Source: an uncultured virus (IMG/VR IMGVR_UViG_3300008113_011532) (Duplodnaviria; Heunggongvirae; Uroviricota; Caudoviricetes). Taken from it: a stretch of 64,000 nt of DNA. Position 1 is the stretch's first letter, and every line of letters begins with the position of its first letter. Shown here piece after piece: positions 25,183-62,127 of the stretch. The position numbers were made by a program, and so were the translations under genes. The notes beneath the pieces were generated by a model that searched no databases, was not told the origin of the DNA, and was given only the letters and a program-made list of their open reading frames with translations. The stretch is from the IMG/VR virus record IMGVR_UViG_3300008113_011532; one strand, 5' to 3'.

Positions 25183-26055
25183 CCTCTGGCCTACGAACAA
25201 CCACTTGAGTTCGTCAATGTGGTTGAGACGACAAAGATCCTGCACGCTAGTACCATATACGTGAGCTATTTTATCCAGGCAGTCACCTTTTCTGACATAA
25301 TGATATTTCCTCATATTGGCGGGCACTCTCGTCTCGAACTTACCGGCCATCGGTAGGGCTATCCCCGCCACGAACTCGACAGACTCGAACTCGTCGAGCA
25401 AATCACTCGCAGGAATTCGAGACTTCAGCAACTCAGGCGTAACTGCAAAAGTATGAGAGACGACCTTCCCCGTCCTGAAATCAACCACATCCTCTGGATC
25501 TATAGCCACGTCGTAGAGCCTAATCTCGAAGTGGAGGTGCGCGCCGAATGAATGACCGGTGTTTCCACCCAAGCCTATAGGATGCCCTGCCTTCACGAAC
25601 TGGCCACTCTCGACCTTCACCTTGCTAAGGTGCGCGTAGTACGTCTCCAGGCCGTTCCTGTGCCTTACTATGACTAGGTTACCGTAGCCGCCGCGGTTCA
25701 TCATCGCGTACCTCACGACACCGTCCCATGCGGATCTTACGGTGTCGCCGGTCCTCAAGGCGATGTCGACGCCGGCGTGCATCGCGTTCCACCTAATGCC
25801 GTAGCGAGAGGTCATATATCCGTCGAACGGGACGTGAAACGAATCAATCGCTATATCGAACCGGCTCTGTACGAATCTGACCATATCCAGGTTCTTCTGC
25901 GATCTCGTTATTCGGGGCGTCCAGTTCTGGAGGCCGGAAACGCCGTTGCTCAGGAAGATTTGCCTATGTACGCTGTCGACCGCGACGTCGACCGTGTCCT
26001 GCGAGATCGCAAGATTGAGTATTGAAATGAAAAGTATCGATAATATTAGCCTCAT
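25168..26055 (-). CDS. M23 peptidase with signal peptide and C-terminal LysM
   Basis: HAGVD, YYAHL, GNTG.SFGAHLHFE; YVRKGDCL..IA..YG..L..LN. Confidence 0.9.
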   Translation of the reverse strand: MRLILSILFISILNLAISQDTVDVAVDSVHRQIFLSNGVSGLQNWTPRITRSQKNLDMVRFVQSRFDIAIDSFHVPFDGYMTSRYGIRWNAMHAGVDIALRTGDTVRSAWDGVVRYAMMNRGGYGNLVIVRHRNGLETYYAHLSKVKVESGQFVKAGHPIGLGGNTGHSFGAHLHFEIRLYDVAIDPEDVVDFRTGKVVSHTFAVTPELLKSRIPASDLLDEFESVEFVAGIALPMAGKFETRVPANMRKYHYVRKGDCLDKIAHVYGTSVQDLCRLNHIDELKWLFVGQRLRVR

Positions 26056-26118
26056 ATTGTTGTCATTTTGTGAAAAAGAAAAACCCGGTCTCCCGGGTTT
26101 TTATACAGTGCCAAAGCA

Positions 26119-26448
26119 CTAAAGTCCAAAGTCGTGGTGCGAGTGCGACGTGTGTGCGTGTTCCTCCTGCGAGTAATATTTGAACGCCGCCTTGTACTGG
26201 TCCTCGTTCTCAATATTGTCGAACATCTCTACCTGCGCGTAGTCGTTGTCGTCCTGCGGATACGGATCGAAAGATCCGTGGAAAGTCTTTCCAGGGTTTA
26301 TCTTCTCCTTCAGCCAAGCCTCGAACTCCTCCACCTCGTCAACTTCCGTTCCGAACATCCTGGCTATGTCGCCGTAAGTCCTTCCGTCTAGGTAGGCAGA
26401 CTTCGTGTCGCCCATAACGAACTCGAGAAACATCTTCAACCTTCTCAT
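26119..26448 (-). CDS. Hypothetical protein (MRRLKMFLEF motif; His-rich tail)
   Basis: ORF behind a TATATA motif. Confidence 0.55.
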   Translation of the reverse strand: MRRLKMFLEFVMGDTKSAYLDGRTYGDIARMFGTEVDEVEEFEAWLKEKINPGKTFHGSFDPYPQDDNDYAQVEMFDNIENEDQYKAAFKYYSQEEHAHTSHSHHDFGL

Positions 26449-26496
26449 ATTATAAACTGTATTTTCGTTATATATTAAGATTGAGATGCCGTTTTT

Positions 26497-26733
26497 TCAC
26501 CGACCGAGTACCTCGTCTATCCTAAGGTTCCTTAGGTCGACCTGGACCTTCTGCCAGTAGTTGTCGTGTATCGAGAAAGTGAGCGTCCCGTCGTCGTTCA
26601 CGATGCAAATAAACCAGGTGTCGCCAATCAGCTCCTGCCTCAGTACCTCCATTCCATCGAAGAAGCTTATGTAGACCTCCTCGATCTCGCCAAATACTCC
26701 TATCCTGTACTTTTCCATATAAAAACCTTTCAC
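26497..26733 (-). CDS. Hypothetical protein
   Basis: C-terminal RNLRIDEVLG motif. Confidence 0.55.
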   Translation of the reverse strand: MKGFYMEKYRIGVFGEIEEVYISFFDGMEVLRQELIGDTWFICIVNDDGTLTFSIHDNYWQKVQVDLRNLRIDEVLGR

Positions 26734-26750
26734 TTTTTATATATAGTGGT

Positions 26751-28412
26751 ATGAAAAGACTAATGACCCGCGAACAGTTCCTGAACGAGGCACACATCTA
26801 CTTCGACGATTACCTGGTAGACACACTGAGTGAGATAGACAATCCAATAGCAAAGAGGCTTCTCGACCTACACAAGAAACAACAGGACACCGACATCGCC
26901 TTCGCCATGCAGGGAAAGAAGGGAAAGGTCAACATAATAACGTACAAAAAGGCAGCAGAGACGCTACGTAAGAAGGAAGACGACGTGTTCATAAACGATG
27001 TGGCAGATGACGTAGAAGCAGACAAGCCACTCGACGACGACTGGCAGAAGAAATCATTCAACTTCCTCAGGGACAACAAGGCGATGACCGCAACAAAAAT
27101 CTCCAGGCTCGTGAACACATTGTTCCCGAAGGAGTACGAGGACGCCGAGGGGCAGAAGACGCTCAGAGACCTGATAGACAAGTACGGCGCGCTCACCGAC
27201 GACACGATGACACTGGAGATTGTAAGAGGCGAGGAGATAAAGAAATGGTACCTCGAGGACAACTACGGCGACAAAAGAGGAGAGCTCGCGTCCAGCTGCA
27301 TGAGGCACGACCGTTGCCAGACCTACTTCGACATTTACACCAAGAACCCCGACGTGGTAAGCATGCTCATCTGCACCAACGCAAAAGGACTGCTGATCGG
27401 AAGAGCACTCATATGGGAGCTCGCGGGCAGCAAGGAGCCGTCGCAGCTTATGGACAGGATCTACTTCAGAAACGAGAGGGTAAAAGAGAAGTTCATAAGC
27501 TACGCAGAGGAGAACGACATGGCCTACAAGGCCGGAAGAGGCCTTACAAACATAGTGTGGCGCGGTGAGAGGTTCAAGAGGTCGCCTAAGGTGCAGCTCG
27601 ACGAGTGGGAGTTCGACGAATACCCGTACATGGACACCTTCGCGAAGCTGGACATCGAGGACGGGACGCTCTACAACTCCGAGGACAAGGCTGAGGGCTT
27701 CTACATACTCACGTCGACCGACGGCGGATACTTCGAGAGGGAAGAAGTCTTTTCAAATTACGAGGACCAGTTCATAGAGGAGGACGAGGCCGATTGGAGC
27801 GAGCCGCTGCAGGACTGGATAAGCAAGAGCAACTCAGTCTACGTAAGCAGCGACTACGACAGTACGACCGGGATCTACCCGAAGGACCATCCGGACATCA
27901 AGCTGATAGAAGGGCAAGGATATTTCCACATCAACGACACGCTTTACAGCGAGGCGATGGATCAGTACATACTCTACTCCGACGCGATAGAAATAGTAGG
28001 TCACATCGACGATATGGAGGCAGACTCGTTTGGACACGAGATTGATTATGTCGATAGATCGAAAAAACTCGTAATCTGGCGGGATATGCTCTGTGCGAAC
28101 TGGCTGAGGCACCTAATAGACAATGACATTTGGGAAGAGAAGCCGTTACTCGACGACGATGTGGTGAAGGCAGAGAACGGAAAGTACTACCTGGTCGACT
28201 GGTCGATAGTCGCGTACGAGACAGAGAAGGGCCCGCTCTCGTTCAAACACTGCCAGACGCTAGGGATTGACAACGCAGGACTCAAGGAGCTGATGACCGA
28301 CACGCCGAGCTACTACTGGGGATTGAAGCCGGAGATAAAAAAGGAGCTAATCGAGAAACTCAAAGAAAAGGACCCCAAGGAGTTAAAGAAAATCGAGTCC
28401 TGGTCGCACTAA
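26751..28412 (+). CDS. Large hypothetical protein (SCM, GRALIW, MDRIY and YPYMDT motifs)
   Basis: 553 aa ORF; N-terminal EQFLNEA motif. Confidence 0.65.
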   Translation: MKRLMTREQFLNEAHIYFDDYLVDTLSEIDNPIAKRLLDLHKKQQDTDIAFAMQGKKGKVNIITYKKAAETLRKKEDDVFINDVADDVEADKPLDDDWQKKSFNFLRDNKAMTATKISRLVNTLFPKEYEDAEGQKTLRDLIDKYGALTDDTMTLEIVRGEEIKKWYLEDNYGDKRGELASSCMRHDRCQTYFDIYTKNPDVVSMLICTNAKGLLIGRALIWELAGSKEPSQLMDRIYFRNERVKEKFISYAEENDMAYKAGRGLTNIVWRGERFKRSPKVQLDEWEFDEYPYMDTFAKLDIEDGTLYNSEDKAEGFYILTSTDGGYFEREEVFSNYEDQFIEEDEADWSEPLQDWISKSNSVYVSSDYDSTTGIYPKDHPDIKLIEGQGYFHINDTLYSEAMDQYILYSDAIEIVGHIDDMEADSFGHEIDYVDRSKKLVIWRDMLCANWLRHLIDNDIWEEKPLLDDDVVKAENGKYYLVDWSIVAYETEKGPLSFKHCQTLGIDNAGLKELMTDTPSYYWGLKPEIKKELIEKLKEKDPKELKKIESWSH

Positions 28413-28458
28413 AAGACGGTAAACATACGGAAAACAATCCGTATAAACTAAAAACTTA

Positions 28459-28776
28459 GTGAAACAAATGGCATCAACCAGATTCGACAAAGAGTTCAGC
28501 AACAACTTCAAGGTAGGAAAGCACTACTCGTGCGAGCTCACGCCCTACGACCCAATCTACAGGGTACAGGTGCTCGAAATAACCGATAAGTGCCTGGTGC
28601 TGGACATAAACGGCCAACTTCCGAACTTCTGGCGCGACGAGATCGCAACCAAAGAGCTCACGAAGGGTGACCAGCCAGGAACGTACTGGCTCGACAAAGG
28701 CCTGCTAGACACGTTCTTCTTCGAGGATCACGAGACAAACAGAGACCAGGCACTAGAAAAACTCGGCATAAAGTAA
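28459..28776 (+). CDS. Hypothetical protein
   Basis: C-terminal RDQALEKLGI motif. Confidence 0.55.
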   Translation: MKQMASTRFDKEFSNNFKVGKHYSCELTPYDPIYRVQVLEITDKCLVLDINGQLPNFWRDEIATKELTKGDQPGTYWLDKGLLDTFFFEDHETNRDQALEKLGIK

Positions 28777-28806
28777 AAAAAGAGTAGGTTATTCGAAACT
28801 TAGCCG

Positions 28807-28856
28807 TATATTTGTCTTATAAAACAAAAAGGGAAGTAAAAAAACTTTATATATAC
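28807..28856 (+). promoter_or_regulatory. Tandem Bacteroidota-type -7 box (TATATTTG) and phage TATATA motif upstream of leader 1
   Basis: tatatttg at 28807-28814; ttatatatac just before the ATG. Confidence 0.6.
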
Positions 28857-28862
28857 AACACA

Positions 28863-28973
28863 ATGAAAGCAACAACACTAAATATGGCAATCGTGAGAAA
28901 CTTGATGGTGAATATTACATTATGTAATATTAGACCAGACGAGGGTTCCAGCCTATTTGTGGATGTCGCATAA
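28863..28973 (+). CDS. Attenuator leader peptide 1 (MKATTLNMAIVRNLMVNITLCNIRPDEGSSLFVDVA)
   Basis: 36 codons; the L M V N I T L C N I R block matches the downstream tRNA set; contains gacgagggttc complementary to the terminator 5' arm. Confidence 0.85.
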   Translation: MKATTLNMAIVRNLMVNITLCNIRPDEGSSLFVDVA

Positions 28974-28994
28974 GCATTCGTGAAAAGAAACTCG

Positions 28995-29030
28995 AACCCT
29001 CAGTCAAAAAACTGAGGGTTTTTTGTTTTT
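28995..29030 (+). terminator. Attenuator terminator 1
   Basis: aaccctcagt-caaaaa-actgagggtt plus U-tract. Confidence 0.85.
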
Positions 29031-29035
29031 ATAAA

Positions 29036-29116
29036 AGATTGAAAAAGGAAGTTGATAAATGTATTTTAGTTTGTGCTAACTGCCATAGAGAAATACACGA
29101 TGAAATTTCCAAATAA
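29036..29116 (+). pseudogene. C-terminal remnant of an HNH endonuclease
   Basis: Translates RLKKEVDKCILVCANCHREIHDEISK* with no start codon. Confidence 0.65.
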
Positions 29117-29121
29117 CATAC

Positions 29122-29193
29122 GGACGGGTAGCTCAGAGGCAGAGCAAAACCCTGTTAAGGTTGAGGTCGAGATATCGTAATTCTCCCCGTCCG
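29122..29193 (+). tRNA. tRNA-Asn(GTT)
   Basis: Cloverleaf, anticodon loop ctGTTaa; atypical T-loop. Confidence 0.8.
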
Positions 29194-29203
29194 CTAGTAA
29201 AAT

Positions 29204-29290
29204 GGACTTGTAGCTGATAAGGTTTAGCTGGTGACTGTTAATCACTGAATGAAAAATGAAATAAAGTAGGTTCGAATCCTACCTGGTCCG
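29204..29290 (+). tRNA. tRNA-Asn(GTT) with an expanded A-rich variable region
   Basis: ggtga-ctGTTaa-tcact; ~19 nt unpaired variable region. Confidence 0.65.
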
Positions 29291-29302
29291 CAAAAAACAA
29301 CA

Positions 29303-29386
29303 CGGTAGGTACCCGAGCGGTCCCAGGGACTAGTCTGATACACTAGGCGCGAAAGCGCGACGTGGGTTCAAATCCCACCCTACCGA
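29303..29386 (+). tRNA. tRNA with Ile anticodon (GAT) and a class II long variable arm
   Basis: ctagt-ctGATac-actag; V-arm gcgc-gaaa-gcgc. Confidence 0.75.
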
Positions 29387-29391
29387 CAAAC

Positions 29392-29466
29392 AGTCCCGTC
29401 GTCCAATGGAAAGGACGTCGGTCTTCTAAACCGAAGATGTGGGTTCGACTCCCGCCGGGACTACCA
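29392..29466 (+). tRNA. tRNA-Arg(TCT)
   Basis: tcggt-ctTCTaa-accga; encoded CCA. Confidence 0.9.
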
Positions 29467-29470
29467 AGAC

Positions 29471-29544
29471 TGGAATATAGCTCAGTTGGTTAGAGCATTC
29501 GCCTGATACGCGAAAGGTCGCTGGTTCGAATCCAGCTATTCCAA
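29471..29544 (+). tRNA. tRNA-Ile(GAT)
   Basis: ttcgc-ctGATac-gcgaa. Confidence 0.9.
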
Positions 29545-29556
29545 CAAAAAATACAA

Positions 29557-29630
29557 GCACCGGTGGTCGAGCGGCTTTAGGCGCTGGCCTGCAAAGCCAG
29601 ATTACGTGGGTTCGAATCCCTCCCGGTGCT
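29557..29630 (+). tRNA. tRNA-Cys(GCA)
   Basis: ctggc-ctGCAaa-gccag. Confidence 0.9.
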
Positions 29631-29636
29631 CAAAAT

Positions 29637-29709
29637 GCCTTTGTAGCTCAGCTGGTAGAGCGCTTCACTTGTAATGAAGATGTCGCAGGTTCGACCCCTG
29701 TCAAAGGCT
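29637..29709 (+). tRNA. tRNA-Thr(TGT)
   Basis: cttca-ctTGTaa-tgaag. Confidence 0.9.
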
Positions 29710-29713
29710 CAAA

Positions 29714-29761
29714 TGATGCTCAAAGCGATGCTGTAAGTGATGCTGTAAATGATGCTCAAAA
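29714..29761. repeat. Four tandem ~12-bp repeats ((t/c)gatgct core)
   Basis: tgatgctcaaag cgatgctgtaag tgatgctgtaaa tgatgctcaaaa. Confidence 0.8.
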
Positions 29762-29762
29762 C

Positions 29763-29832
29763 GCCGCGGCTTAGTGGAAAAGAACCGTCTCTCATAAGGA
29801 CGGAAAAGTGAGTTCGAACCTCATACGCGGCA
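29763..29832 (+). tRNA. tRNA-Met(CAT), atypical short D-arm
   Basis: ccgtct-ctCATaa-ggacgg; T-arm gtgag-ttcgaac-ctcat. Confidence 0.65.
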
Positions 29833-29852
29833 CTAACTAAAAAAAGAAAGAC

Positions 29853-30011
29853 ATGAAATTCGAAGACTACTTCAAAAGCAAGTTTCCTTTCCTGAAGGAA
29901 AGCCAGGAAAGCCACACGATCGACATCGACTCGGACACGCTCATATACCTGGTGCAGGACTTCATCGACAAAGAAAGGAGCAGAGAAGACCAATCGAAGG
30001 CATTCGAGTAA
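29853..30011 (+). CDS. 52-aa hypothetical protein inside the tRNA cassette
   Basis: MKFEDYFKSKFPFLKES...; phage-like codon usage. Confidence 0.55.
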   Translation: MKFEDYFKSKFPFLKESQESHTIDIDSDTLIYLVQDFIDKERSREDQSKAFE

Positions 30012-30018
30012 CAGAAAC

Positions 30019-30091
30019 AGGGAATTAGCTCAATCGGGAGAGCACCAGTCTTACATACTGGAGGTAGCGGGATCGTAACCCGCATTCCCTA
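30019..30091 (+). tRNA. tRNA-Val(TAC)
   Basis: ccagt-ctTACat-actgg. Confidence 0.85.
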
Positions 30092-30093
30092 CT

Positions 30094-30198
30094 AGGCAGT
30101 GGCAACCGAAAGGGCTACTTCGTAAATGGTTTACAATTTGACTTCAAATCAAACTCCGCGGTTCAATTCCGCAAAACCCTACGGGACTTACCCTGCCT
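30094..30198 (+). ncRNA. tRNA-like RNA with UCA anticodon and an irregular, extended acceptor helix
   Basis: D-arm gtaa/ttac, tttga-ctTCAaa-tcaaa, T-arm gcgg-ttcaatt-ccgc; outer helix aggcag/ctgcct. Confidence 0.55.
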
Positions 30199-30202
30199 CT
30201 AC

Positions 30203-30285
30203 GCACCGGTGGTGAAACTGGAGATACACGCTGCGCTTAAACCGCAGTCCTTTATTGGTTGAGGGTTCGAGCCCCTTCCGGTGCA
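30203..30285 (+). tRNA. tRNA-Leu(TAA)
   Basis: ctgcg-ctTAAac-cgcag; long V-arm. Confidence 0.85.
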
Positions 30286-30318
30286 CTTAAATATATATAA
30301 AAGAAAAGTACAAAAAAC

Positions 30319-31089
30319 ATGAGCATAACACTACTCGGTACATGCAGAATAGATTCGATACCAGGACACAATAACCTGAACAATCTAATAAACTACCCAC
30401 ACTCGACGAAAGAAGTCATACAGATGCTCGAATTCATCTCAGGTAAGAAGGATTTGAAGAGTCCGTATAACCTACTTTGTCTAAGAGCGGCAATTATAGA
30501 AACAGTCTATCCGGGATCAATCTCAAGAGAGACCGGTCTACCCGAAAATGTAATCTTCGAAAGGTTCGAATTGACAGAGTCAAACGGTAAAAAACACATA
30601 CTTCAACAAACGTCAATCGTAGAAAAATTCAATCAAACTGAGGTATTTGTTATTGAGATTTCTTCAGTAAAAAATTACACACACAACGGACACTACCTAC
30701 ACCACCTCTGCGTAGACGAAAGATTTCCTGACTACAAAAGCATAACTCCAGTCGAAATACTTGACGAACACACTGTCAACAAACAGAGTGAGGCAGAAAT
30801 CGAGAAAGACATATTGAAAATCGTAGAAATGCTATCACCAAAGAAAATACTTATTGTATCACACTTCAACTACAAAAACGGAACAGAATTCATACCAAGT
30901 AGGAACGATTTAGTACGCACGCTTGAAAGAATATGTGAAAGAAACGGAATCGCCTTCGCAAATCCGGCAGAGCTACTGTCAGAACACGACCAGAACCTGA
31001 CTATGGGTAGCGACAGCGAACACTACACGCCACTCGGTAAAGTACTAATTGGCGAAAAGCTAAGTCAGATGATCGACAAACTGGCCTGA
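30319..31089 (+). CDS. Hypothetical protein, possibly SGNH/GSCFA-like
   Basis: GTCR at the N-terminus, IEISS and DSEHY motifs; AT-richer than neighbouring genes. Confidence 0.45.
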   Translation: MSITLLGTCRIDSIPGHNNLNNLINYPHSTKEVIQMLEFISGKKDLKSPYNLLCLRAAIIETVYPGSISRETGLPENVIFERFELTESNGKKHILQQTSIVEKFNQTEVFVIEISSVKNYTHNGHYLHHLCVDERFPDYKSITPVEILDEHTVNKQSEAEIEKDILKIVEMLSPKKILIVSHFNYKNGTEFIPSRNDLVRTLERICERNGIAFANPAELLSEHDQNLTMGSDSEHYTPLGKVLIGEKLSQMIDKLA

Positions 31090-31135
31090 ATGAAAAAAAA
31101 AATCTAAATAAACTTCCTGGCAAGAAAAAAATACA

Positions 31136-31156
31136 TATATTTGTTCAGTTCTTTGA
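31136..31156 (+). promoter_or_regulatory. TAnnTTTG promoter followed by boxA-like GTTCTTTGA
   Basis: tatatttg 31136-31143; gttctttga 31148-31156. Confidence 0.55.
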
Positions 31157-31175
31157 GAGAAAGCAATAAATAAAA

Positions 31176-31257
31176 GCTCTTGTGGTGGAATTGGTAGACA
31201 CGCTAGACTTAGGATCTAGTGCCGCAAGGTGTGCGAGTTCGAGTCTCGCCAAGAGTA
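31176..31257 (+). tRNA. tRNA-Leu(TAG)
   Basis: ctaga-ctTAGga-tctag. Confidence 0.9.
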
Positions 31258-31280
31258 CAGAAAAAAAAACGCTTCAAAGC

Positions 31281-31343
31281 TTGTCGGAATGGAAATAATG
31301 ACTATCTTTGAAAAACAATAACAGAACAAAGGTTCTTTGACAT
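31281..31343 (+). promoter_or_regulatory. TTG...TATCTTTG promoter followed by boxA-like GTTCTTTGACAT
   Basis: Motifs at 31281, 31303-31310 and 31332-31343. Confidence 0.6.
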
Positions 31344-31364
31344 ACTAAAACAAAAACAATAAAT

Positions 31365-31445
31365 GCTCCGGTGGTGGAATGGTAGACACGCTCGTTTCAG
31401 AGGCGAGTGCCGCAAGGTGTGAGGGTTCAAGTCCCTTCTGGAGTA
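31365..31445 (+). tRNA. tRNA-Leu(CAG)
   Basis: ctcgt-ttCAGag-gcgag. Confidence 0.9.
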
Positions 31446-31451
31446 CAAAAA

Positions 31452-31525
<74 letters not shown>

Positions 31526-31533
31526 CTAAAAAC

Positions 31534-31605
<72 letters not shown>

Positions 31606-31625
31606 CGAAAAAATGTTCTAAAAAG

Positions 31626-31680
31626 TTTGGTGGAACGAAAAGAAACACTAACTTTGTAAAACAAACGAGGTCTTTGACAT
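31626..31680 (+). promoter_or_regulatory. TTTG...TAACTTTG promoter followed by boxA-like GGTCTTTGACAT
   Basis: Motifs at 31626, 31649-31656 and 31669-31680. Confidence 0.6.
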
Positions 31681-31691
31681 AACAAGAAAAC

Positions 31692-31763
31692 GGCGCCATA
31701 GTTCAAGGGATAGAATAGAAGTTTCCTAAACTTTAGATCCAGGTTCGAATCCTGGTGGGGCCA
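31692..31763 (+). tRNA. tRNA-Arg(CCT)
   Basis: gaagt-ttCCTaa-acttt. Confidence 0.88.
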
Positions 31764-31777
31764 CTAAAAAACAAAAC

Positions 31778-31860
31778 GCGCCGATGGCGAAATTGGTAGA
31801 CGCGCCATCCTGAGGGGGTGGTGTCCTATGGATGTGGGGGTTCAAGTCCCCCTCGGCGTA
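31778..31860 (+). tRNA. tRNA-Leu(GAG)
   Basis: ccatc-ctGAGgg-ggtgg. Confidence 0.88.
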
Positions 31861-31873
31861 CAAAAAACACAAC

Positions 31874-31955
31874 GGCCTTGTGTTGGAAATGGTAGACAAG
31901 CACGTTTGAGGGGCGTGTGCCGAAAGGCGTATGGGTTCAAGTCCCATCAAGGTCA
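31874..31955 (+). tRNA. tRNA-Leu(GAG), second copy
   Basis: cacgt-ttGAGgg-gcgtg. Confidence 0.85.
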
Positions 31956-32003
31956 CAAAAGAATGCTCAGGCAACCCCCTGGTGAAAGCATTCGAAAATA
32001 TAT

Positions 32004-32076
<73 letters not shown>

Positions 32077-32090
32077 CTAAAAAAATACAT

Positions 32091-32163
32091 TGCGCGGTGG
32101 AGAAGTAGGTATCTCGTGAGGCTCATAACCTTAAGATCGGCGGTTCGAGTCCGTCCTGCGCTA
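32091..32163 (+). tRNA. tRNA-fMet(CAT), second copy
   Basis: 1:72 mismatch, tgagg-ctCATaa-cctta. Confidence 0.8.
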
Positions 32164-32283
32164 CAAAAACCCAGGCAACCTCCTGGTAGAAACAGAATGC
32201 TCAGGCAACCCCCTGGTAAAAAGCATTCGAGCTCTTTGAAATGTCAAATACTAAAAATAAAGCTCAGGCGTAATTAACCTGCA

Positions 32284-32413
32284 GCCTGGATGGTTCGAAA
32301 CATCCGATTTGATATGGTGTACTGGGCACGACACCCGCCGCTGAGGTTCGAATCCTCAGGTAAGGAATGGCTACCACGGGAGTAAGATTGGGTTCGATTC
32401 CCTTTATCAGGCC
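32284..32413 (+). ncRNA. Putative structured RNA with three T-loop-like hairpins
   Basis: ggatg-gttcgaaa-catcc, ctgagg-ttcgaat-cctcag and ggg-ttcgatt-ccc, closed by gcctg/caggc. Confidence 0.4.
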
Positions 32414-32510
32414 AAAAGACCAGACAACCCTCTGGCAGCAACGCTAACACAGCACAATGCGGGCTCATACCTGCGGCGTAGTGTGACGGTCAGGAGAGAC
32501 TGACAACCTT

Positions 32511-32586
<76 letters not shown>

Positions 32587-32654
32587 ATCAAAGGTCGCTG
32601 CAACGGGCTGCGAGAGCCGAGGATCGAAATGTTTGCAGACATAGACATCTAGGC

Positions 32655-32727
32655 AGTGTGTTCGTATAGGGGACTAGTACGTCGTTCGCGAAGAACGGAA
32701 ACACGGGTTCGAGTCCCGTACACACAA
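32655..32727 (+). tRNA. tRNA-like gene with a Glu-type body and aberrant anticodon loop
   Basis: Acceptor gtgtgt/acacac, T-arm acggg-ttcgagt-cccgt; loop cgcgaag lacks U33. Confidence 0.5.
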
Positions 32728-32737
32728 CAAAAAATAC

Positions 32738-32810
32738 ACGGGTGTAGCTCAGCTGGTAGAGTAGTGGTCTCCAAAACCATTGGTCGTGGGTTCGAATCCT
32801 ACCTCCCGTG
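32738..32810 (+). tRNA. tRNA-Trp(CCA)
   Basis: gtggt-ctCCAaa-accat. Confidence 0.88.
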
Positions 32811-32812
32811 CT

Positions 32813-33020
32813 AGATTAGTAATCGATATGATGGAGGGAATAGCCATCGCGTGAATGGCCCGACCTTTTGCATCACGGATAGTTGCGCAAACAATACGTG
32901 GACTAGGAGGAAAGCTATAACCGGCAAGGATTAGAAATCAAGTCGGAAAGAAGCAAGTACAGAACCCGAACGGACGAACTTACTAAGTCCAAAGGGTAAG
33001 GGTGTCGACAATGCTAATCT
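32813..33020 (+). ncRNA. Putative ~210-nt ncRNA between two tRNAs
   Basis: Closing helix agattagt/gctaatct plus tcgata/tgtcga; no substantial ORF. Confidence 0.45.
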
Positions 33021-33023
33021 TAA

Positions 33024-33097
33024 GGTCTTGTAGCTCAGTTGGTTAGAGCACTGGTCTCATAAACCAGGGGTCCTCGGATCGTGCCCGAGCAGGACCA
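33024..33097 (+). tRNA. tRNA-Met/Ile2(CAT), elongator type
   Basis: ctggt-ctCATaa-accag. Confidence 0.85.
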
Positions 33098-33113
33098 CAC
33101 CAGTATCTGGTAC

Positions 33114-33923
33114 TCACGATTGTTGAGTACCATTTACTTTTAAATACTCAATCAGAGTATCAAATTCCATTTCAACTTTTTCTTTTGAGAATCTACCCAT
33201 ATCTTTGATGATGTATGGTTTATAACCACACCTTTCAATTTCTTTCAATTTTATTCTATCTCTATTCTGTACCTGTGATAAAGAATGACCTTCCCTTATT
33301 TTCTCGTAGTGCCACTTACCATTCCACAAAACAGCCAACTTACAATCGTGTATGATTACATCCGCATCCCAACCATTGAATATAGGTTTGTTATTTTCGA
33401 CATTATTGAAGTAATCAGAGCACTTCTCAAAGAACAGAATCTCATTTTTACTCCTACGAACCTGTGTATTAATAGACTTCTCAACCATTTTTCGTATATT
33501 TTCTCTACCCTCATCAGTTTTACATCTATGTTTACTCGAACACGAAATAGAACAAAATAAATTTCTTTTCCTGGACATAGTAATATCGACACCACATTCC
33601 AAACAACTCTTAGCACTTCTCGGTCTTTTTTCACGAACGGTGCCCAAAACCGAATTTCGAATCTTTTCTCGGGTCTCATCACTACGCTCTCTCTTATTCG
33701 CACAACTACGGGAACAATAAACATCCTTTCTCTCAAAGTGAGTGTACTCAACCATATTATCACAGTGTTTACACTTATCGATGAAATCGAATTTTTCCTT
33801 TAACATCCTTATAGATAGTTTCTTCAGAATCCGTTTCAGTTTATAGATGTTTATACCCAACTCATTCGCCATATCTTGTCTACTATAACCAAGCTCTATC
33901 ATTTCCTCAATATGTTCTTTCAT
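33114..33923 (-). CDS. Putative free-standing homing endonuclease (HTH, Zn-ribbons, PD-(D/E)xK/Vsr-like domain)
   Basis: YCSRSC, FCSISC, DAD, WNGKWHY and QNRDRIK motifs; AT-rich and antisense to the tRNA cluster. Confidence 0.7.
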   Translation of the reverse strand: MKEHIEEMIELGYSRQDMANELGINIYKLKRILKKLSIRMLKEKFDFIDKCKHCDNMVEYTHFERKDVYCSRSCANKRERSDETREKIRNSVLGTVREKRPRSAKSCLECGVDITMSRKRNLFCSISCSSKHRCKTDEGRENIRKMVEKSINTQVRRSKNEILFFEKCSDYFNNVENNKPIFNGWDADVIIHDCKLAVLWNGKWHYEKIREGHSLSQVQNRDRIKLKEIERCGYKPYIIKDMGRFSKEKVEMEFDTLIEYLKVNGTQQS

Positions 33924-34024
33924 AAAAAACTTATTTTTAGTTTATATATAAAACTAGATGACCTATGGTTCGATTTTATTTTGGACTACATTTTTTTAAT
34001 CCAGTTCCACTTTATATATACTCT

Positions 34025-34660
34025 ATGATAAAGAAATGGAATGAGTTCTGCCGAATAATCGAATCCGGCGAATACATGGACGACTACCTCGACGCAATCA
34101 ACGGAAGCGGCCACATATACCCGGACGAGAAGGAGAGGCTCTTCATCGGAAAGTCGTTGGACCTACCGAGGGTAAGGATCCTTGACGAGTTCCAGAGGAG
34201 GCTGGTCGAGCAGTTCCCGGGCATCATCATGTTCACATACGGCGGTTCTGTGCTGATTCCTACTTACATCGACGGCAACACAATCGAAGGCGTCGGCTAC
34301 AAGGACCAGGGCGGCAAGCTAGTCTTCCAACAGTTCAGCAACCGATCTACATCATTCATCAGCGACTACGACTTCCAGGACGACCACGACGAGCTTTACA
34401 TGAGCATCGCCGGGGAGATGGCGGAGAACGACGGAAGACCTTACATCGAGGCGGACCGAGACAACGACGAGATTGATCATGCGAGGACAGAGCAGATTTT
34501 GGCACACCTAAGCAAGATGTCCAACGCGGGGTTCTCGGACTTCACGAGGAGGAACATCCCCGACAAAAGGTACTGGGACTGTAAGAGATCCATCGCGGAC
34601 GTTGCCCAGTACATAATCGATAACGATTTATGGGAAAAAATCAAGGCGGAAATAGGATAA
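34025..34660 (+). CDS. Hypothetical protein (MIKKWNEF motif)
   Basis: ATG just after a TATATA motif. Confidence 0.6.
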   Translation: MIKKWNEFCRIIESGEYMDDYLDAINGSGHIYPDEKERLFIGKSLDLPRVRILDEFQRRLVEQFPGIIMFTYGGSVLIPTYIDGNTIEGVGYKDQGGKLVFQQFSNRSTSFISDYDFQDDHDELYMSIAGEMAENDGRPYIEADRDNDEIDHARTEQILAHLSKMSNAGFSDFTRRNIPDKRYWDCKRSIADVAQYIIDNDLWEKIKAEIG

Positions 34661-34722
34661 ATCGAAAAAAAGTTCCTATCTTTACAAAACAAAGGAAACG
34701 AAAACTTATATATACAATACTT

Positions 34723-34815
34723 ATGAAAACTTTCATCAACATAACAGCTATCTTCCCGCAGGATCAGGATCAACCGAAAAGGTTGTGGACTAGCTGCCTA
34801 TTGTCTGAAAGTTGA
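34723..34815 (+). CDS. Attenuator leader peptide 2 (MKTFINITAIFPQDQDQPKRLWTSCLLSES)
   Basis: PQDQDQP block matches the downstream Gln/Asp/Pro tRNAs; ggactagctg pairs with the terminator 5' arm. Confidence 0.88.
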   Translation: MKTFINITAIFPQDQDQPKRLWTSCLLSES

Positions 34816-34835
34816 TAAAGAACTTGAACGATATG

Positions 34836-34868
34836 AGCCCAGTTAGTCTTTGATTAGCTGGGTTTTTT
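34836..34868 (+). terminator. Attenuator terminator 2
   Basis: agcccagttagtc-ttt-gattagctgggtt plus U-tract. Confidence 0.85.
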
Positions 34869-34879
34869 CGTTTATACAA

Positions 34880-34953
34880 TGTCCCGTGGTGTAATTCGGC
34901 AACACGTCTGATTTTGGCTCAGAAGAGTCCAGGTTCGAGCCCTGGCGGGACAA
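34880..34953 (+). tRNA. tRNA-Gln(TTG)
   Basis: tctga-ttTTGgc-tcaga. Confidence 0.9.
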
Positions 34954-34963
34954 CAAAGAAAAC

Positions 34964-35035
34964 TGTCGAGTCGTCTAGTTGGCAGGACACGGGATTTTGA
35001 CTCCCGAGACACAGGTTCGAAGCCTGTCTCGACAA
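34964..35035 (+). tRNA. tRNA-Gln(TTG), second copy
   Basis: cggga-ttTTGac-tcccg. Confidence 0.88.
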
Positions 35036-35049
35036 CTAAAGCAGGAAAA

Positions 35050-35122
35050 GGTCCTGCAGTCCAGTGGAGTGGACGCCGCCCTGTCACGGCGGAGATCGTG
35101 GGTTCGAATCCCATCAGGACCG
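35050..35122 (+). tRNA. tRNA-Asp(GTC)
   Basis: ccgcc-ctGTCac-ggcgg. Confidence 0.9.
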
Positions 35123-35132
35123 CAAAACAAAA

Positions 35133-35206
35133 CGAGTAGTAGAGGAGTGGTTTATCTCGGGTGCATTGGAAGCATCAGCACGCAGGTTCGAATCCTGCCT
35201 ATTCGA
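35133..35206 (+). tRNA. tRNA-Pro(TGG)
   Basis: ggtgc-atTGGaa-gcatc. Confidence 0.8.
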
Positions 35207-35210
35207 CAAA

Positions 35211-35282
35211 GGTCCTGTCGTCCAATGGTAGGATAACCCGTTGTCTGCGGGATGGTTGCGGGTTCGAGCCCCGTCAGGACCG
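35211..35282 (+). tRNA. tRNA-Asp(GTC), second copy
   Basis: cccg-ttGTCtg-cggg. Confidence 0.8.
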
Positions 35283-35336
35283 CGAATATAACTAGGTGTA
35301 GATCAGTTGGTAGATCGGGTGGTTTGGGACCATCAG

Positions 35337-35540
35337 AAAGACCTTACCATTATCTAATGAAAATACTGCACCGAACACACCGACACCTAAAAACTCTTTA
35401 ATTTTTCCAAACTTGCTTTCAAATTTTTCTACATCAAAGGATTCAATAAACTTATTCATATTGTTTTTAACTTGTTCACTAACAATATGTGATCTCATTA
35501 TCAATGCCTCAAAGCCTTTTCTTAATAAGCTTTTTACCAA
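35337..35540 (-). pseudogene. Truncated kinase-like ORF at the edge of the insertion
   Basis: LGVGVFGAVF Gly-rich loop, cut at the tRNA junction. Confidence 0.45.
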
Positions 35541-35605
35541 TACATCATTATTAGATGTTAATTCGTTAAAAAAATAAATATATACTCTAATAAAAAAACA
35601 ATGAT

Positions 35606-36178
35606 ATGAAATACATTAAAACATTTGAGTCTTTCAAATTAAACGAAACACAGGACATGATGTTCATGCCTGTTGATCCAATTAAAGGTGCAGCTGAAGC
35701 TTATTCAGATATTGCAAGCGCTTTAGGTGGGAAATTCCACGAAGCATTGGATAAAGTAGAAGAAGTTGCTGAAGCAGTAGTTGAAGAAATTGGTGGAAAA
35801 GCTTCTGAAGTATTAAGTTCTGTAGAAAGATTCTTCGGAATTCCTGCAGAAGAACTTACTTATGATGCTATTGTAGCTAAATTAGAAAAATCAAACGAGT
35901 CTTTCGTAGACAAATATGATGAAGCAGATCCATATGATGGACATGGAGAAACTATGACGACTCCTTTAAAAGATATAAAAGGAGGTCCTGTTCAAAAGAT
36001 TCTTTCGATACTTCAAAATGTATTTGCCACCAACATCCTTTCAATTGGAGTATTAGGAACTTTTGTTACTTGGATAGCAGGTATAACTGTAAACTTTGCT
36101 GTGTCTATGCTTGTATCAATCGCTGCATTCGTAGTAATACATATTATAAGAAAACTTGTAACTATGGCTACTGCATAA
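35606..36178 (+). CDS. AT-rich membrane protein with MKYIKTFESFKLNE N-terminus
   Basis: 190 aa ORF with two C-terminal hydrophobic helices; codon usage differs from the rest of the window. Confidence 0.75.
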   Translation: MKYIKTFESFKLNETQDMMFMPVDPIKGAAEAYSDIASALGGKFHEALDKVEEVAEAVVEEIGGKASEVLSSVERFFGIPAEELTYDAIVAKLEKSNESFVDKYDEADPYDGHGETMTTPLKDIKGGPVQKILSILQNVFATNILSIGVLGTFVTWIAGITVNFAVSMLVSIAAFVVIHIIRKLVTMATA

Positions 36179-56411: not shown

Positions 56412-56531
56412 ATGACAACGAACAGCAAACATAAGCATTTTAGTAAATCAAGCAAGTGGTTTAGCAAAAAACCCGAACTTGGTACTGGCAAAGTATTGCG
56501 TTTGTTCTCAGAGGATCTTACGACCATATAG
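56412..56531 (+). CDS. Attenuator leader peptide 3 (MTTNSKHKHFSKSSKWFSKKPELGTGKVLRLFSEDLTTI)
   Basis: K/H/F/W block matches the downstream His/Phe/Lys/Trp tRNAs; gaacttgg pairs with the terminator arm ccaagttc. Confidence 0.85.
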   Translation: MTTNSKHKHFSKSSKWFSKKPELGTGKVLRLFSEDLTTI

Positions 56532-56550: not shown

Positions 56551-56586
56551 AAACCCAAGTTCACGAGACTTGGGTTTTTTTGTTTT
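56551..56586 (+). terminator. Attenuator terminator 3
   Basis: aaacccaagtt-cacga-gacttgggttt plus U-tract. Confidence 0.85.
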
Positions 56587-56592: not shown

Positions 56593-56665
56593 GGTGTGTG
56601 TAGCTCAGAGGCAGAGCGCTGGTTTGTGAAGCCAGAGGCCGGGATTTCGAAACTCCTCACGCACC
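56593..56665 (+). tRNA. tRNA-His(GTG)
   Basis: ctggt-ttGTGaa-gccag; G-1 and C73. Confidence 0.85.
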
Positions 56666-56676
56666 CAACATAACAA

Positions 56677-56752
56677 GGAGCTGTGGCAGATGTGGTCATT
56701 GCGCTGGACTGAAAATTCAGAGGAACGGGATCGTAACCCGTCGGCTCCACCA
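56677..56752 (+). tRNA. tRNA-Phe(GAA)
   Basis: ctgga-ctGAAaa-ttcag; encoded CCA. Confidence 0.85.
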
Positions 56753-56756
56753 AAAT

Positions 56757-56828
56757 TGCCTTGTAGCTGAGCGGTAAAGCACCTGACTCTTAATCAGGGG
56801 ATCGCAGGTTCAATCCCTGCCGGGGCAA
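56757..56828 (+). tRNA. tRNA-Lys(CTT)
   Basis: cctga-ctCTTaa-tcagg. Confidence 0.9.
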
Positions 56829-56840
56829 CAAAAAATACAA

Positions 56841-56913
56841 GCGTCGTTGGTGTAACGGCTTAGCATCTCTGGCTCCAACCCAGAGGGTCAGGGTTCGAAT
56901 CCTTGGCGGCGCG
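56841..56913 (+). tRNA. tRNA-Trp(CCA)
   Basis: tctgg-ctCCAac-ccaga. Confidence 0.88.
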
Positions 56914-56921
56914 CAAAATAT

Positions 56922-56996
56922 GACTTCGTAGCTCAGTTGGTTCAGAGCACTCCACTTTTAATGGAGGGGTCGTGGGTTCGAGCCCCACCGGGGTCA
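56922..56996 (+). tRNA. tRNA-Lys(TTT)
   Basis: ctcca-ctTTTaa-tggag. Confidence 0.9.
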
Positions 56997-56998
56997 CT

Positions 56999-57072
56999 GT
57001 GTCGGTAGCTCAGTCGGTCAGAGCGCTGGTTTGTGGAACCAGAGGTCGCGGGTTCAAGTCCCGTTCGACACC
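56999..57072 (+). tRNA. tRNA-His(GTG), second copy
   Basis: ctggt-ttGTGga-accag. Confidence 0.85.
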
Positions 57073-60049: not shown

Positions 60050-60121
60050 ATGAAAGCATCTGTAAACATATCAAGCTCATCAAGTCGCTCATCAGCGGCC
60101 GAGGTCCGATTGTGTTTATAG
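60050..60121 (+). CDS. Attenuator leader peptide 4 (MKASVNISSSSSRSSAAEVRLCL)
   Basis: SSSSSRSS block matches the downstream Arg(ACG) and four Ser tRNAs; ccgagg pairs with the terminator arm cctcgg. Confidence 0.88.
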   Translation: MKASVNISSSSSRSSAAEVRLCL

Positions 60122-60144
60122 CTGTCGCATAACGATATTGTATG

Positions 60145-60175
60145 AACCCTCGGAAGAAACGCCGAGGGTTTTTTT
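60145..60175 (+). terminator. Attenuator terminator 4
   Basis: aaccctcgg-aagaaacg-ccgagggtt plus U-tract. Confidence 0.85.
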
Positions 60176-60256: not shown

Positions 60257-60347
60257 GGAGAAATAAGAGCAGTGTGGACTAAGCTCGGCGCACTTGAAAT
60301 GCGTAGGCCCTCGAGGTGTCTGGGTTCGAGCCCCAGTTTCTCCGCCA
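60257..60347 (+). tRNA. tRNA-Ser(TGA)
   Basis: gcgca-ctTGAaa-tgcgt; long V-arm, G73, CCA. Confidence 0.85.
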
Positions 60348-61500: not shown

Positions 61501-61587
61501 ATGAAAGCAACATTCAAAATAGAGGCCATAGGGTATGCGTATGAGGCGGGACGCCACATATCCGGACTGACTTTGTCTTTTGAGTAG
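61501..61587 (+). CDS. Attenuator leader peptide 5 (MKATFKIEAIGYAYEAGRHISGLTLSFE)
   Basis: IEAIGYAYEAG block matches the downstream Glu/Tyr/Ile(TAT)/Gly/Ala tRNAs; cggactg pairs with cagtctg. Confidence 0.88.
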   Translation: MKATFKIEAIGYAYEAGRHISGLTLSFE

Positions 61588-61608
61588 TTGATATATTACG
61601 ATATTGAG

Positions 61609-61640
61609 AAGCCCAGTCTGAGAAACAGACTGGGCTTTTT
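61609..61640 (+). terminator. Attenuator terminator 5
   Basis: aagcccagtctg-agaaa-cagactgggctt plus U-tract. Confidence 0.88.
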
Positions 61641-61647: not shown

Positions 61648-61721
61648 GGTCCGTTCGTCTAGCGGTTTAGGACATCTTCCTTTCACGAAGAAGATCACGG
61701 GTTCGAATCCCGTACGGATCA
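61648..61721 (+). tRNA. tRNA-Glu(TTC)
   Basis: tcttc-ctTTCac-gaaga. Confidence 0.9.
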
Positions 61722-61744
61722 CAAAAAAAAAAAATGAAAAATAC

Positions 61745-61827
61745 TGGAAGGTGGCCGAGTGGTTAAAGGCGGCAGACTGTAAATCTGCTCTCGAAAGAGT
61801 ACGGGGGTTCGAATCCCTCCCTTCCAA
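61745..61827 (+). tRNA. tRNA-Tyr(GTA)
   Basis: gcaga-ctGTAaa-tctgc; long V-arm. Confidence 0.9.
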
Positions 61828-61833
61828 CAACAT

Positions 61834-61907
61834 GGTCCGTTAGTGAAGCGGCTTAACACGTCTCCCTTTCACGGAGAAGATCACGGGTTCGAATCCCGTA
61901 CGGACTA
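61834..61907 (+). tRNA. tRNA-Glu(TTC), second copy
   Basis: tctcc-ctTTCac-ggaga. Confidence 0.9.
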
Positions 61908-61914
61908 CAGAAAC

Positions 61915-61988
61915 TGGTAAGTAGCTTAGACGGTAGAAGCACGTGTCTTATACACACGAGATAGTGGGTTCGATACCCACCTTACCAA
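61915..61988 (+). tRNA. tRNA-Ile(TAT)
   Basis: cgtgt-ctTATac-acacg. Confidence 0.85.
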
Positions 61989-61995
61989 CAGAAAA

Positions 61996-62067
61996 GCAGG
62001 TATCGTACAACGGTTAGTACAGGGCACTTCCAATGCTCAGATGTCGGTTCGATTCCGGTTACCTGCA
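61996..62067 (+). tRNA. tRNA-Gly(TCC)
   Basis: gggca-ctTCCaa-tgctc. Confidence 0.88.
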
Positions 62068-62127
62068 CAAAAAGACTTAAAAGTCCTGCGTACACAGGAC
62101 GCGAGAAGGTTAGTCTTCCTTCTATCC

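Follow-up and report, generated by a model that had tools for sequence, protein, structure and literature searches.

A probable ribosome-mediated attenuator in front of a tRNA operon in the DNA of an uncultured phage

We describe a region of a 64,000-nucleotide (nt) stretch of DNA from an uncultured virus (IMG/VR IMGVR_UViG_3300008113_011532; the whole stretch is called the window below) in which a short open reading frame (ORF), an intrinsic terminator and ten transfer RNA (tRNA) genes follow one another on the + strand. The sequence and its modelled folds indicate that this region, Attenuator 1, is probably a ribosome-mediated leader-peptide transcription attenuator which gates the phage tRNA operon behind it, and that it is one of five in the window. 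An earlier sequence-only reading had proposed an attenuator here, and the proposal is supported by the short ORF, its block of cognate codons, the terminator and the antiterminator arm, an arrangement that is repeated at four other clusters of the window and in three other huge-phage genomes. The phage, a giant one from a lake, probably makes its clustered tRNAs mainly when ribosomes read the corresponding codons slowly. The elements of the region are the following.

28807–28814, + strand: TAnnTTTG promoter-like motif, TATATTTG, 56 nt before the ATG of leader 1
28848–28855, + strand: TATATATA motif, 7 nt before the ATG of leader 1
28863–28973, + strand: leader ORF 1, ATG start, 36 codons plus stop, peptide MKATTLNMAIVRNLMVNITLCNIRPDEGSSLFVDVA
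28890–28934, + strand: control block of leader 1, codons 10–24, I V R N L M V N I T L C N I R
28906–28937, + strand: hairpin inside the block, a TGGT/ACCA flank plus AATATTACA-tta-TGTAATATT
28938–28949, + strand: segment 2, the antiterminator 5' arm, with the core GAGGGTTC at 28941–28948
28994–29030, + strand: intrinsic terminator 1, with 5' arm 28994–29004 (segment 3), 3' arm 29011–29021 (segment 4) and T-run 29019–29030
29039–29116, + strand: remnant of an HNH endonuclease C-terminus, 25 codons (Pfam HNH, E 0.0048, 17.5 bits, below the cut-off of 21.4)
29122–30286, + strand: tRNA cluster A, consisting of Asn, Asn, Ile(GAT), Arg(TCT), Ile(GAT), Cys, Thr(TGT), a CAT-anticodon tRNA, Val(TAC) and Leu(TAA)

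The sequence-only reading had placed a block of codons, ttg atg gtg aat att aca tta tgt aat att aga, at 28902–28934. The block is present there, in frame within the ATG ORF, and the run to which it belongs is longer than had been stated: all 15 of codons 10–24 can be read by cluster A tRNAs under plain wobble rules. The match extends to the level of isoacceptors, as had been claimed (AGA with TCT, ACA with TGT, TTR with TAA and GTR with TAC). When all six frames were scanned, this 15/15 run was the sole one of its kind among about 128,000 codon windows, and the block is the top-scoring segment of the whole stretch for the cluster A tRNA set. The list of ten tRNAs given earlier also held: nine (Asn, Asn, Ile, Arg, Ile, Cys, Thr, Val and Leu) are called by ARAGORN and the 'Met' tRNA by Rfam alone. 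The latter (anticodon CAT, 29763–29832) scores 30.2 bits against a cut-off of 29 and is missed by ARAGORN.

The hairpin within the block, described earlier as aatattaca/tgtaatatt, is indeed a palindrome (AATATTACA-tta-TGTAATATT) that occurs a single time in the window, where none is expected by chance. It is a possible pause element, or possibly the 5' half of an anti-antiterminator. The mirroring which the palindrome imposes (AAT/ATT and ACA/TGT) yields the string 'N I T .. C N I' in the peptide and, because these triplets are reverse complements of one another, three of the 15 block codons are not independent.

The window as a whole is phage-like and holds at least 43 tRNA genes (ARAGORN and Rfam give 41 each, with two unique to each program), arranged in seven clusters that all lie on the + strand. 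A leader stands in front of five of these clusters. For each leader, the lines below give the coordinates and the number of its sense codons that are served by its own cluster and by each of the six others.

Leader 1, coordinates as above: own cluster 20 of 35 codons; each other cluster 0–5
Leader 2, 34723–34815, + strand, ..FPQDQDQPK..; terminator 34835–34865; tRNAs Gln Gln Asp Pro Asp, 34880–35283; own cluster 7 of 29 codons, in one run of 7; each other cluster 0–8
Leader 3, 56412–56531, + strand, ..KHKHFSKSSKWFSKK.. (KHKHF..KWF..KK); terminator 56551–56577; tRNAs His Phe Lys Trp Lys His, 56594–57072; own cluster 13 of 38 codons; each other cluster 1–7
Leader 4, 60050–60121, + strand, ..SSSSSRSS..; terminator 60144–60171; tRNAs Arg(ACG) at 60180 and Ser(TGA) at 60257–60344; own cluster 7 of 22 codons; each other cluster 0–5
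Leader 5, 61501–61587, + strand, ..IEAIGYAYEAG..; terminator 61608–61638; tRNAs Glu Tyr Glu Ile(TAT) Gly Ala Gly, 61648–62455; own cluster 14 of 27 codons; each other cluster 0–5

Since the first codons (ATG AAA GCA/ACT ...) are common to all five, we regard the leaders as paralogues. Their spacing is regular, with 44–49 nt from stop codon to T-run in all five and 11–19 nt from T-run to first tRNA in four of them, which leaves no room for a separate promoter. The corresponding distance in leader 1 is 103 nt because the HNH remnant, which is not part of the switch, has been inserted between terminator 1 and the first tRNA. A detector that carried no tRNA condition (an ATG ORF of 15–70 codons whose stop lies 33–62 nt before a hairpin plus T-run) was applied to both strands of the whole window and returned exactly these five leaders, all of them directly before tRNA clusters.

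For every leader the highest score is that with its own cluster. When match scores were taken relative to the codon usage of the window, the true pairing of the five leaders with the seven clusters had the highest summed z-score among 2520 possible assignments. In the six-frame scan the blocks of leaders 1, 2 (a 7/7 run) and 3 alone reach their match counts, while the block of leader 5 is one of four codon windows at its count and that of leader 4 one of 17. A maximal-segment scan, which works without hand-picked blocks, gives the leader the top rank in the window when the codon set is that of cluster A, D or E; with the sets of clusters B and C, which have no leader, the highest-scoring segments fall in other places.

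Relatives of leader 1 were found through a 105-amino-acid ORF just upstream of it. These are an IMG/VR contig (L002) and two metagenome contigs (L004 and L005); two further loci found with the same anchor (L006 and L007) are cut at contig ends. Of three other neighbouring proteins used as anchors, that of 553 amino acids gave one locus (L001), with no tRNAs and no leader, that of 256 amino acids gave no loci, and a ParB-like one of 298 amino acids gave 80 distant loci, which served solely as a control set. A 596-amino-acid protein, used to place the phage or its host, gave a single weak match. When viral contigs were searched for exact pattern matches to the palindrome region, the L002 contig alone came up, and a megablast comparison of positions 26000–36000 with phage records gave tRNA-sized matches only. 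The start, frame and 37-codon length (stop included) of the leader 1 ORF are kept in all four close homologues. L092 and L093 keep an ORF as well, so that an ATG ORF is present in six of six homologues. DNA identity from the promoter motif to the T-run is 87–90%; for the neighbouring protein gene it is 73–79%. The HNH remnant is missing in L002, L004 and L005, where the T-run lies about 20 nt from the tRNA. For a contig from a freshwater run, 12 positions are listed as different from the window, plus one deletion; all of them fall within 28737–28859, and no listed difference is within 28863–29030.

Changes do occur within the block. L005 shows AGA>AGC, AAC>ACT, TTG>ACA, ATT>AAT, AAT>ATT and ATT>ATC, among which the ATT/AAT swap is compensatory in the hairpin and keeps both codons within the served set. 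The 3 nt indel in leader 1 of L092 is in frame. In leader 2 the string PQDQDQP is invariant in L002 and L005, with flanks that vary and include an in-frame 6 nt indel. The contig that holds L002 (G002) lacks homologues of leaders 3–5, so that the comparison with close relatives covers leaders 1 and 2.

A search with the leader itself (blastn in 'distant' mode) led to two GenBank records labelled 'uncultured phage', LR756502.1 (642 428 bp) and LR745206.1 (634 780 bp). Their leader 1 homologues read MKTMNLNMNLNTLTVVNNTLCIRPCEG.. and MTTMNLNMTMNLTLNVVNITLCNIRPTEG.., their clusters include Leu(TAG), and CTA, CTG and CTC codons occur in the leaders. Applied to the other tRNA regions of these two genomes, the detector found three more leaders in each. 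As a control we used 81 loci fetched for an unrelated protein (distant loci of a 298-amino-acid ParB-like anchor; 907 437 bp and 66 tRNAs in all). The detector returned one candidate (MKKYNAYQQYNQNQNQSS..), which is itself a codon-matched leader and lies in a 373 759 bp IMG/VR phage (G003); the other tRNA regions of this phage yielded four more. Apart from the two leader 1 homologues, the leaders of the three genomes are as follows.

LR756502.1/LR745206.1: SSRSRSSKS, before Arg(ACG) Ser(TGA) Arg(TCG)
LR756502.1/LR745206.1: IETIGYTGYEGAY, before Glu Tyr Glu Tyr Glu Ile Gly Gly
LR756502.1/LR745206.1: QVQRQVVVDQDQPD, before Pro Pro Asp Asp Asp
LR756502.1/LR745206.1: PVNPQPQDQDP, before Pro, four Asp, Pro and three Gln
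LR756502.1/LR745206.1: NISIAVIGNGAGAI, before Ile(TAT) Gly Met Gly
LR756502.1/LR745206.1: a second Ser/Arg leader
G003: MKKYNAYQQYNQNQNQSS.. (YNAYQQYNQNQNQ), before Asn Asn Tyr Tyr Gln Gln Gln
G003: IVLVFPVFVSF, before Phe Pro Val Val
G003: LIHIHHIW, before Trp .. His His
G003: IVRISRRR, before Ile Arg Arg
G003: TITKGMYTGTTFTTKKDGK, before Lys Met Gly Met Gly Gly Thr Thr Lys Lys Lys Met

Thus 13 further leaders stand in these three genomes beyond the five of the window. The window, LR756502.1 and LR745206.1 are related to one another; the leaders of G003 share no obvious sequence with them. The tRNAs of G003 are grouped differently from those of the window, and the composition of its leaders follows the grouping. 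Across the four genomes the own cluster is the best match for 17 of the 18 leaders, and in each genome the true pairing alone reaches its score (among 120, 24, 24 and 120 permutations). The single miss is the Gln/Asp/Pro leader of LR756502.1, in whose cluster, as we delimited it, ARAGORN lists no Gln tRNA.

Folding analysis of the leaders supports the presence of two mutually exclusive structures. Terminator 1 has 11 pairs, five of them GC, and an energy of −16.5 kcal/mol. The pairing put forward earlier, of gacgagggttc (28938–28948) with gaaccctc(a)gtc, was confirmed; the best duplex, CGAGGGTTCC with GAACCCTCAGT, has an energy of −14.8 kcal/mol (z −4.1) that was matched by none of 500 dinucleotide shuffles, and CGAGGGTTCC is the best partner of the terminator 1 5' arm anywhere in leader 1. 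The region 28820–29035 as a whole folds at −55.5 kcal/mol, compared with −33.5 ± 3.8 kcal/mol in shuffles (z −5.7). In all of the 22 leaders that were folded, the sequence that pairs best with the terminator 5' arm is found towards the end of the ORF, past the block. The energies of these antiterminators range from −7.8 to −19.4 kcal/mol, with z at or below −2 in 11 of the 22.

The structures are conserved among the homologues of leader 1. The antiterminator, compared over six homologues, has eight pairs, of which six are invariant, and 95.8% of cells are paired; the two remaining pairs show compensatory changes (UA>CG in L005 and CG>UA in L092). The block hairpin has 94.7% of cells paired over six homologues and one compensatory change (UA>AU), and the terminator 1 pairs, in four homologues, have 100% of cells paired and one compensatory change. 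When compared with shuffled data, 3–7 of 500 reach the observed values on four of five covariation measures, and 111 of 500 on the remaining one, which concerns further pair types.

We also folded transcripts that end before the terminator 3' arm while a 28 nt ribosome mask was shifted codon by codon along the leader. With the ribosome at block codons, every one of the five window leaders pairs with 7–11 nt of its terminator 5' arm. In leaders 3 and 4 this pairing is gone when there is no ribosome or when the ribosome has moved further downstream, which is the classical behaviour. In full-length folds a ribosome placed mid-block narrows the advantage of the terminator over the antiterminator state in all five leaders, as listed here.

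Leader 1: terminator advantage 9.5 kcal/mol without a ribosome, 3.6 kcal/mol with a ribosome mid-block
Leader 2: 11.1 kcal/mol without, 5.3 kcal/mol with
Leader 3: 11.5 kcal/mol without, 6.9 kcal/mol with
Leader 4: 16.2 kcal/mol without, 7.8 kcal/mol with
Leader 5: 18.7 kcal/mol without, 15.5 kcal/mol with

The sequence-only reading was to be given up if the antiterminator could not compete with the terminator. On transcripts that lack the 3' arm, the 5' arm pairs with the leader whenever a ribosome sits in the block, so that in a kinetic sense the antiterminator can compete; at equilibrium the terminator of leader 1 is the stabler structure by 3.6 kcal/mol even with the ribosome mid-block. 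Since the terminator is favoured at equilibrium, the proposed switch would have to be kinetic, segments 2 and 3 pairing while segment 4 has yet to be transcribed, which is the accepted mode of action of classical attenuators.

Of 23 leaders, 15 have a TAnnTTTG motif, which we take to be the Bacteroidota −7 promoter element, in the 100 nt ahead of them, compared with an expectation of about 0.5. The + strand of the window carries 15 TAnnTTTG sites, and a strict version, [CG][CGT]TATATTTGT, is seen three times, each time before a tRNA leader. The second motif ahead of leader 1, TATATATA, also has 15 sites in the window (for example 16956, 26738, 34013 and 52475). Many of these are 4–8 nt before the ATG of a protein gene and they are often preceded by TT, and the motif may be a phage promoter that gives near-leaderless messenger RNAs, or an initiation signal.

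Taken together, these features suggest the following mode of action. Transcription would start at a promoter upstream of the leader and the 36-codon leader would be translated. The 15 codons at its centre are exactly the ones that the ten downstream tRNAs decode. If charged tRNA for any one block codon were scarce, the ribosome would stall, the block hairpin would open and segment 2 would be left free. Segment 2 could then pair with 28994–29004 before the 3' arm is made, both structures being possible and conserved, and once the antiterminator had formed RNA polymerase would presumably read through into the tRNA genes. Fast decoding would instead carry the ribosome onto segment 2 or to the stop codon between the two arms; the terminator would then form and the tRNAs would not be made. 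The product tRNAs would relieve the stall, giving a negative feedback that would match the expression of each cluster to the demand for the codons it serves. The promoter used and the timing of events are presumed in this scheme, and the polymerase may pause at the hairpin.

Several of our results weigh against this interpretation or limit it. The terminator state is the stabler one at equilibrium in every leader and every condition modelled, with a gap of 3.6–15.5 kcal/mol when the ribosome is mid-block. The model lets the antiterminator of leaders 1, 2 and 5 form in the absence of a ribosome too, and for these three the default off state is thus not clear; in the full-length minimum-energy fold of leader 1, 28890–28903 pairs with segment 2. 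In the other 11 of the 22 leaders the antiterminator is no better than in shuffles (z −0.1 to −1.9), and these include leaders 2 (z −1.0) and 5 (z −0.4) of the window. The stop codon of leader 1 is 22 nt past segment 2, so that, unlike in the trp leader, a terminating ribosome would leave segment 2 uncovered, and a stall at the last two or three codons of the block would cover it. The covariation comes from 4–6 sequences and is hence to be read as supportive. The boundaries of the codon blocks were picked after looking at them; the segment scan, which avoids this choice, ranks leader 5 (cluster G) second and leader 4 (cluster F) outside the top three. Clusters B (31176–32164) and C (32511–33098) have no leader: TAnnTTTG is found at 31136, 31303 and 31649, with no leader ORF or terminator. 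The HNH remnant separates terminator 1 from the tRNAs and could carry a promoter, there being a weak sigma-70-like match at 29039–29067. Finally, translation, stalling and read-through are inferences drawn from the sequence and its folds alone.

Among the alternatives, the one that fares best, which we nevertheless consider improbable, is that the short ORFs are ordinary small-protein or small-RNA genes with their own terminators, the tRNAs being produced by leak-through or from unseen promoters and the codon match having no regulatory role. The conserved start, frame and length of the ORF would suit a small gene, as would the differences between L002 and L004 in leader 1 (four synonymous codons and no nonsynonymous ones) and the fact that the terminator always wins at equilibrium. 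The residues themselves are, however, not conserved, since the window and L005 differ by nine nonsynonymous codon changes to one synonymous, and a Pfam search of the leader 1 ORF found no credible family, the single weak match being to DUF4957 (E 0.085). Nor does this alternative give any reason why the codons used by each paralogue should be those that its downstream tRNAs read, as in 17 of 18 cases in four genomes, or why a copy of the terminator 3' arm should stand just past the block. The gap of 11–19 nt between T-run and tRNA is, as noted above, too short for a separate promoter.

Direct sensing of the tRNAs by an untranslated leader RNA is still less probable. The block would then be a row of specifier triplets that pair with anticodons, as in a T-box. 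The correspondence at the level of anticodons (AGA/TCT, ACA/TGT, TTR/TAA and GTR/TAC) fits this idea, and much of the block lies within a conserved hairpin. However, all of the 23 leaders start with ATG and are open to a stop codon at a fixed distance from the terminator, their indels are in frame, and changes within the block exchange one served codon for another (for example CAG>CAA and ATT<>AAT), all of which are features of translation. A row of up to 15–21 consecutive specifiers would have no known precedent. An Rfam scan of the whole window at gathering scores gave tRNAs only, with no T-box or other riboswitch family, and on these grounds we rejected a T-box riboswitch.

The third alternative keeps the leader translated and reverses the sign, efficient translation promoting read-through (for example by coupling to the polymerase), or else makes the leader a timer of tRNA expression during infection. 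Two different promoter-like motifs before the leader hint at stage-specific control, and fold models cannot give kinetics. The folds of leaders 3 and 4 point the other way, since a ribosome in the block favours the antiterminator and one beyond the block disfavours it, and segment 2 is downstream of the block in 22 of 22 leaders, which is the layout of stall-induced read-through; we judge this alternative the least probable of the three considered so far. Chance or composition, by which an A/T-rich ORF would simply use the A/T-rich codons that cluster A serves, is highly improbable and was refuted by the window scan, the assignment test and the four-genome permutations: although the codon set of cluster A makes up 23% of codons in the long ORFs of the window and the palindrome ties three of the 15 codons to three others, the run is unique among about 128,000 codon windows, the true pairing is the single best of 2520 assignments, four more leaders match compositionally different sets and the pattern is repeated in three other genomes.

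We note a number of further features in and around the tRNA clusters. The tRNA at 29303–29387 (4739–4823 in L005), which ARAGORN calls Ile(GAT), is 85 nt long and has a long variable arm. In bacteria such an arm normally marks Leu, Ser and Tyr tRNAs, and the identity of this tRNA may be other than Ile. The second tRNA-Asn(GTT), at 29204–29291 (6799–6887 in L002 and 4677–4767 in L004), measures 88–91 nt; its variable region carries an A-rich insertion, which is conserved in the relatives. In the spacer between Val(TAC) and Leu(TAA) (30093–30202), ARAGORN at a relaxed threshold places a tRNA with anticodon TCA at 30111–30182. Rfam has no match there at its gathering score, and the call may represent an opal-reading tRNA or no tRNA at all. 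A 52-codon ORF at 29853–30011 (MKFEDYFKSKF..) lies within cluster A and is nearly identical to one at 7308–7466 in L002; it has no Pfam match. Two CTA-anticodon tRNAs, amber-reading and labelled Pyl by ARAGORN, are found in G003 (L106 878 and L109 888), and one G003 leader ends in TAG.

Traces of mobile elements are also seen. Positions 29036–29100, in the HNH remnant, have matches of about 85% in several other metagenome contigs, as expected for a mobile homing-endonuclease family. Protein genes stand inside the tRNA regions at 33114–33923 (− strand) in the window, at 9172–9807 in L002 and at 7270–7893 in L004, and these are likely to be homing endonucleases. The products of the first two look related by eye (they share NEILF..GWD..LWNG.WHY); for the window copy Pfam gives no more than weak helix-turn-helix matches. 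In the region of clusters B and C (31090–33100) a hairpin motif, CCAGGCAACC(C/T)CCTGG, is repeated at 32168–32230, and it is found again at 9066–9130 in L002.

Beyond Attenuator 1 itself, and with somewhat less assurance, we think it likely that a set of demand sensors for translation operates in huge phages whose freshwater hosts are of Bacteroidota type, each tRNA operon being switched on only when its own codons are decoded slowly, by means of the matching leader peptide. The purpose of phage tRNAs is debated; the usual proposals are that they compensate for codon usage, bear on host range, or make up for tRNAs that host shut-off or tRNA-cleaving defences have removed. If a switch responded to decoding speed codon by codon, this would imply that these phages treat tRNA supply as a regulated quantity. 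The phage could then tune its tRNA output to the host it has entered, or to a loss of host tRNAs through shut-off or tRNA-cleaving defences, and the codons of a leader would reveal which codons each cluster is meant to serve. The parts would amount to a compact, modular and multi-input sensor of decoding speed that is potentially reusable. If the interpretation is correct, these would be the first tRNA genes under ribosome-mediated attenuation and the first direct product-feedback loop on tRNA supply. Our search for literature on the attenuation of tRNA genes, which covered listings and the opening parts of abstracts, found no account of it; a passage on a 'tRNA operon' in PMC3082878 is unrelated to the subject.

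Leader-peptide attenuators are known from amino-acid operons (trpL, hisL, pheL and leuL, and the multivalent thrL and ilvL of enterobacteria). Like them, the phage leaders are short and rich in regulatory codons, precede an intrinsic terminator and contain an arm that can pair with the terminator 5' arm, the regulatory codons lying just upstream of this arm. The closest likeness is to thrL and ilvL, in which several amino acids are sensed by one leader. The phage leaders differ in that their targets are tRNA genes and not enzymes, so that the molecule sensed would be the operon's own product, and in that a single leader would sample up to eight tRNA specificities. They differ further in that the stop codon lies well beyond segment 2, by 22 nt in leader 1. 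The phage leaders are, moreover, carried by a phage, in five paralogous copies in one genome and with promoter motifs which we assume to be of Bacteroidota type. Were they to act as proposed, classical attenuation would extend from amino-acid synthesis to the tRNA pool, and into viruses and a Bacteroidota-type context of expression.

Two other systems act on the apparatus of translation or respond to tRNA. The pheST operon of E. coli, which encodes phenylalanyl-tRNA synthetase, is attenuated by way of the pheM leader. This is ribosome-mediated attenuation of a gene of the translation apparatus, as is proposed here, but pheM controls a synthetase and senses a single amino acid, whereas the phage leaders precede tRNA genes. 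In T-box riboswitches, too, tRNA decides whether a 5' leader folds into a terminator or an antiterminator, as is proposed for the phage leaders. They differ in that a T-box binds one uncharged tRNA directly, is untranslated and controls genes for synthetases, transport and biosynthesis.

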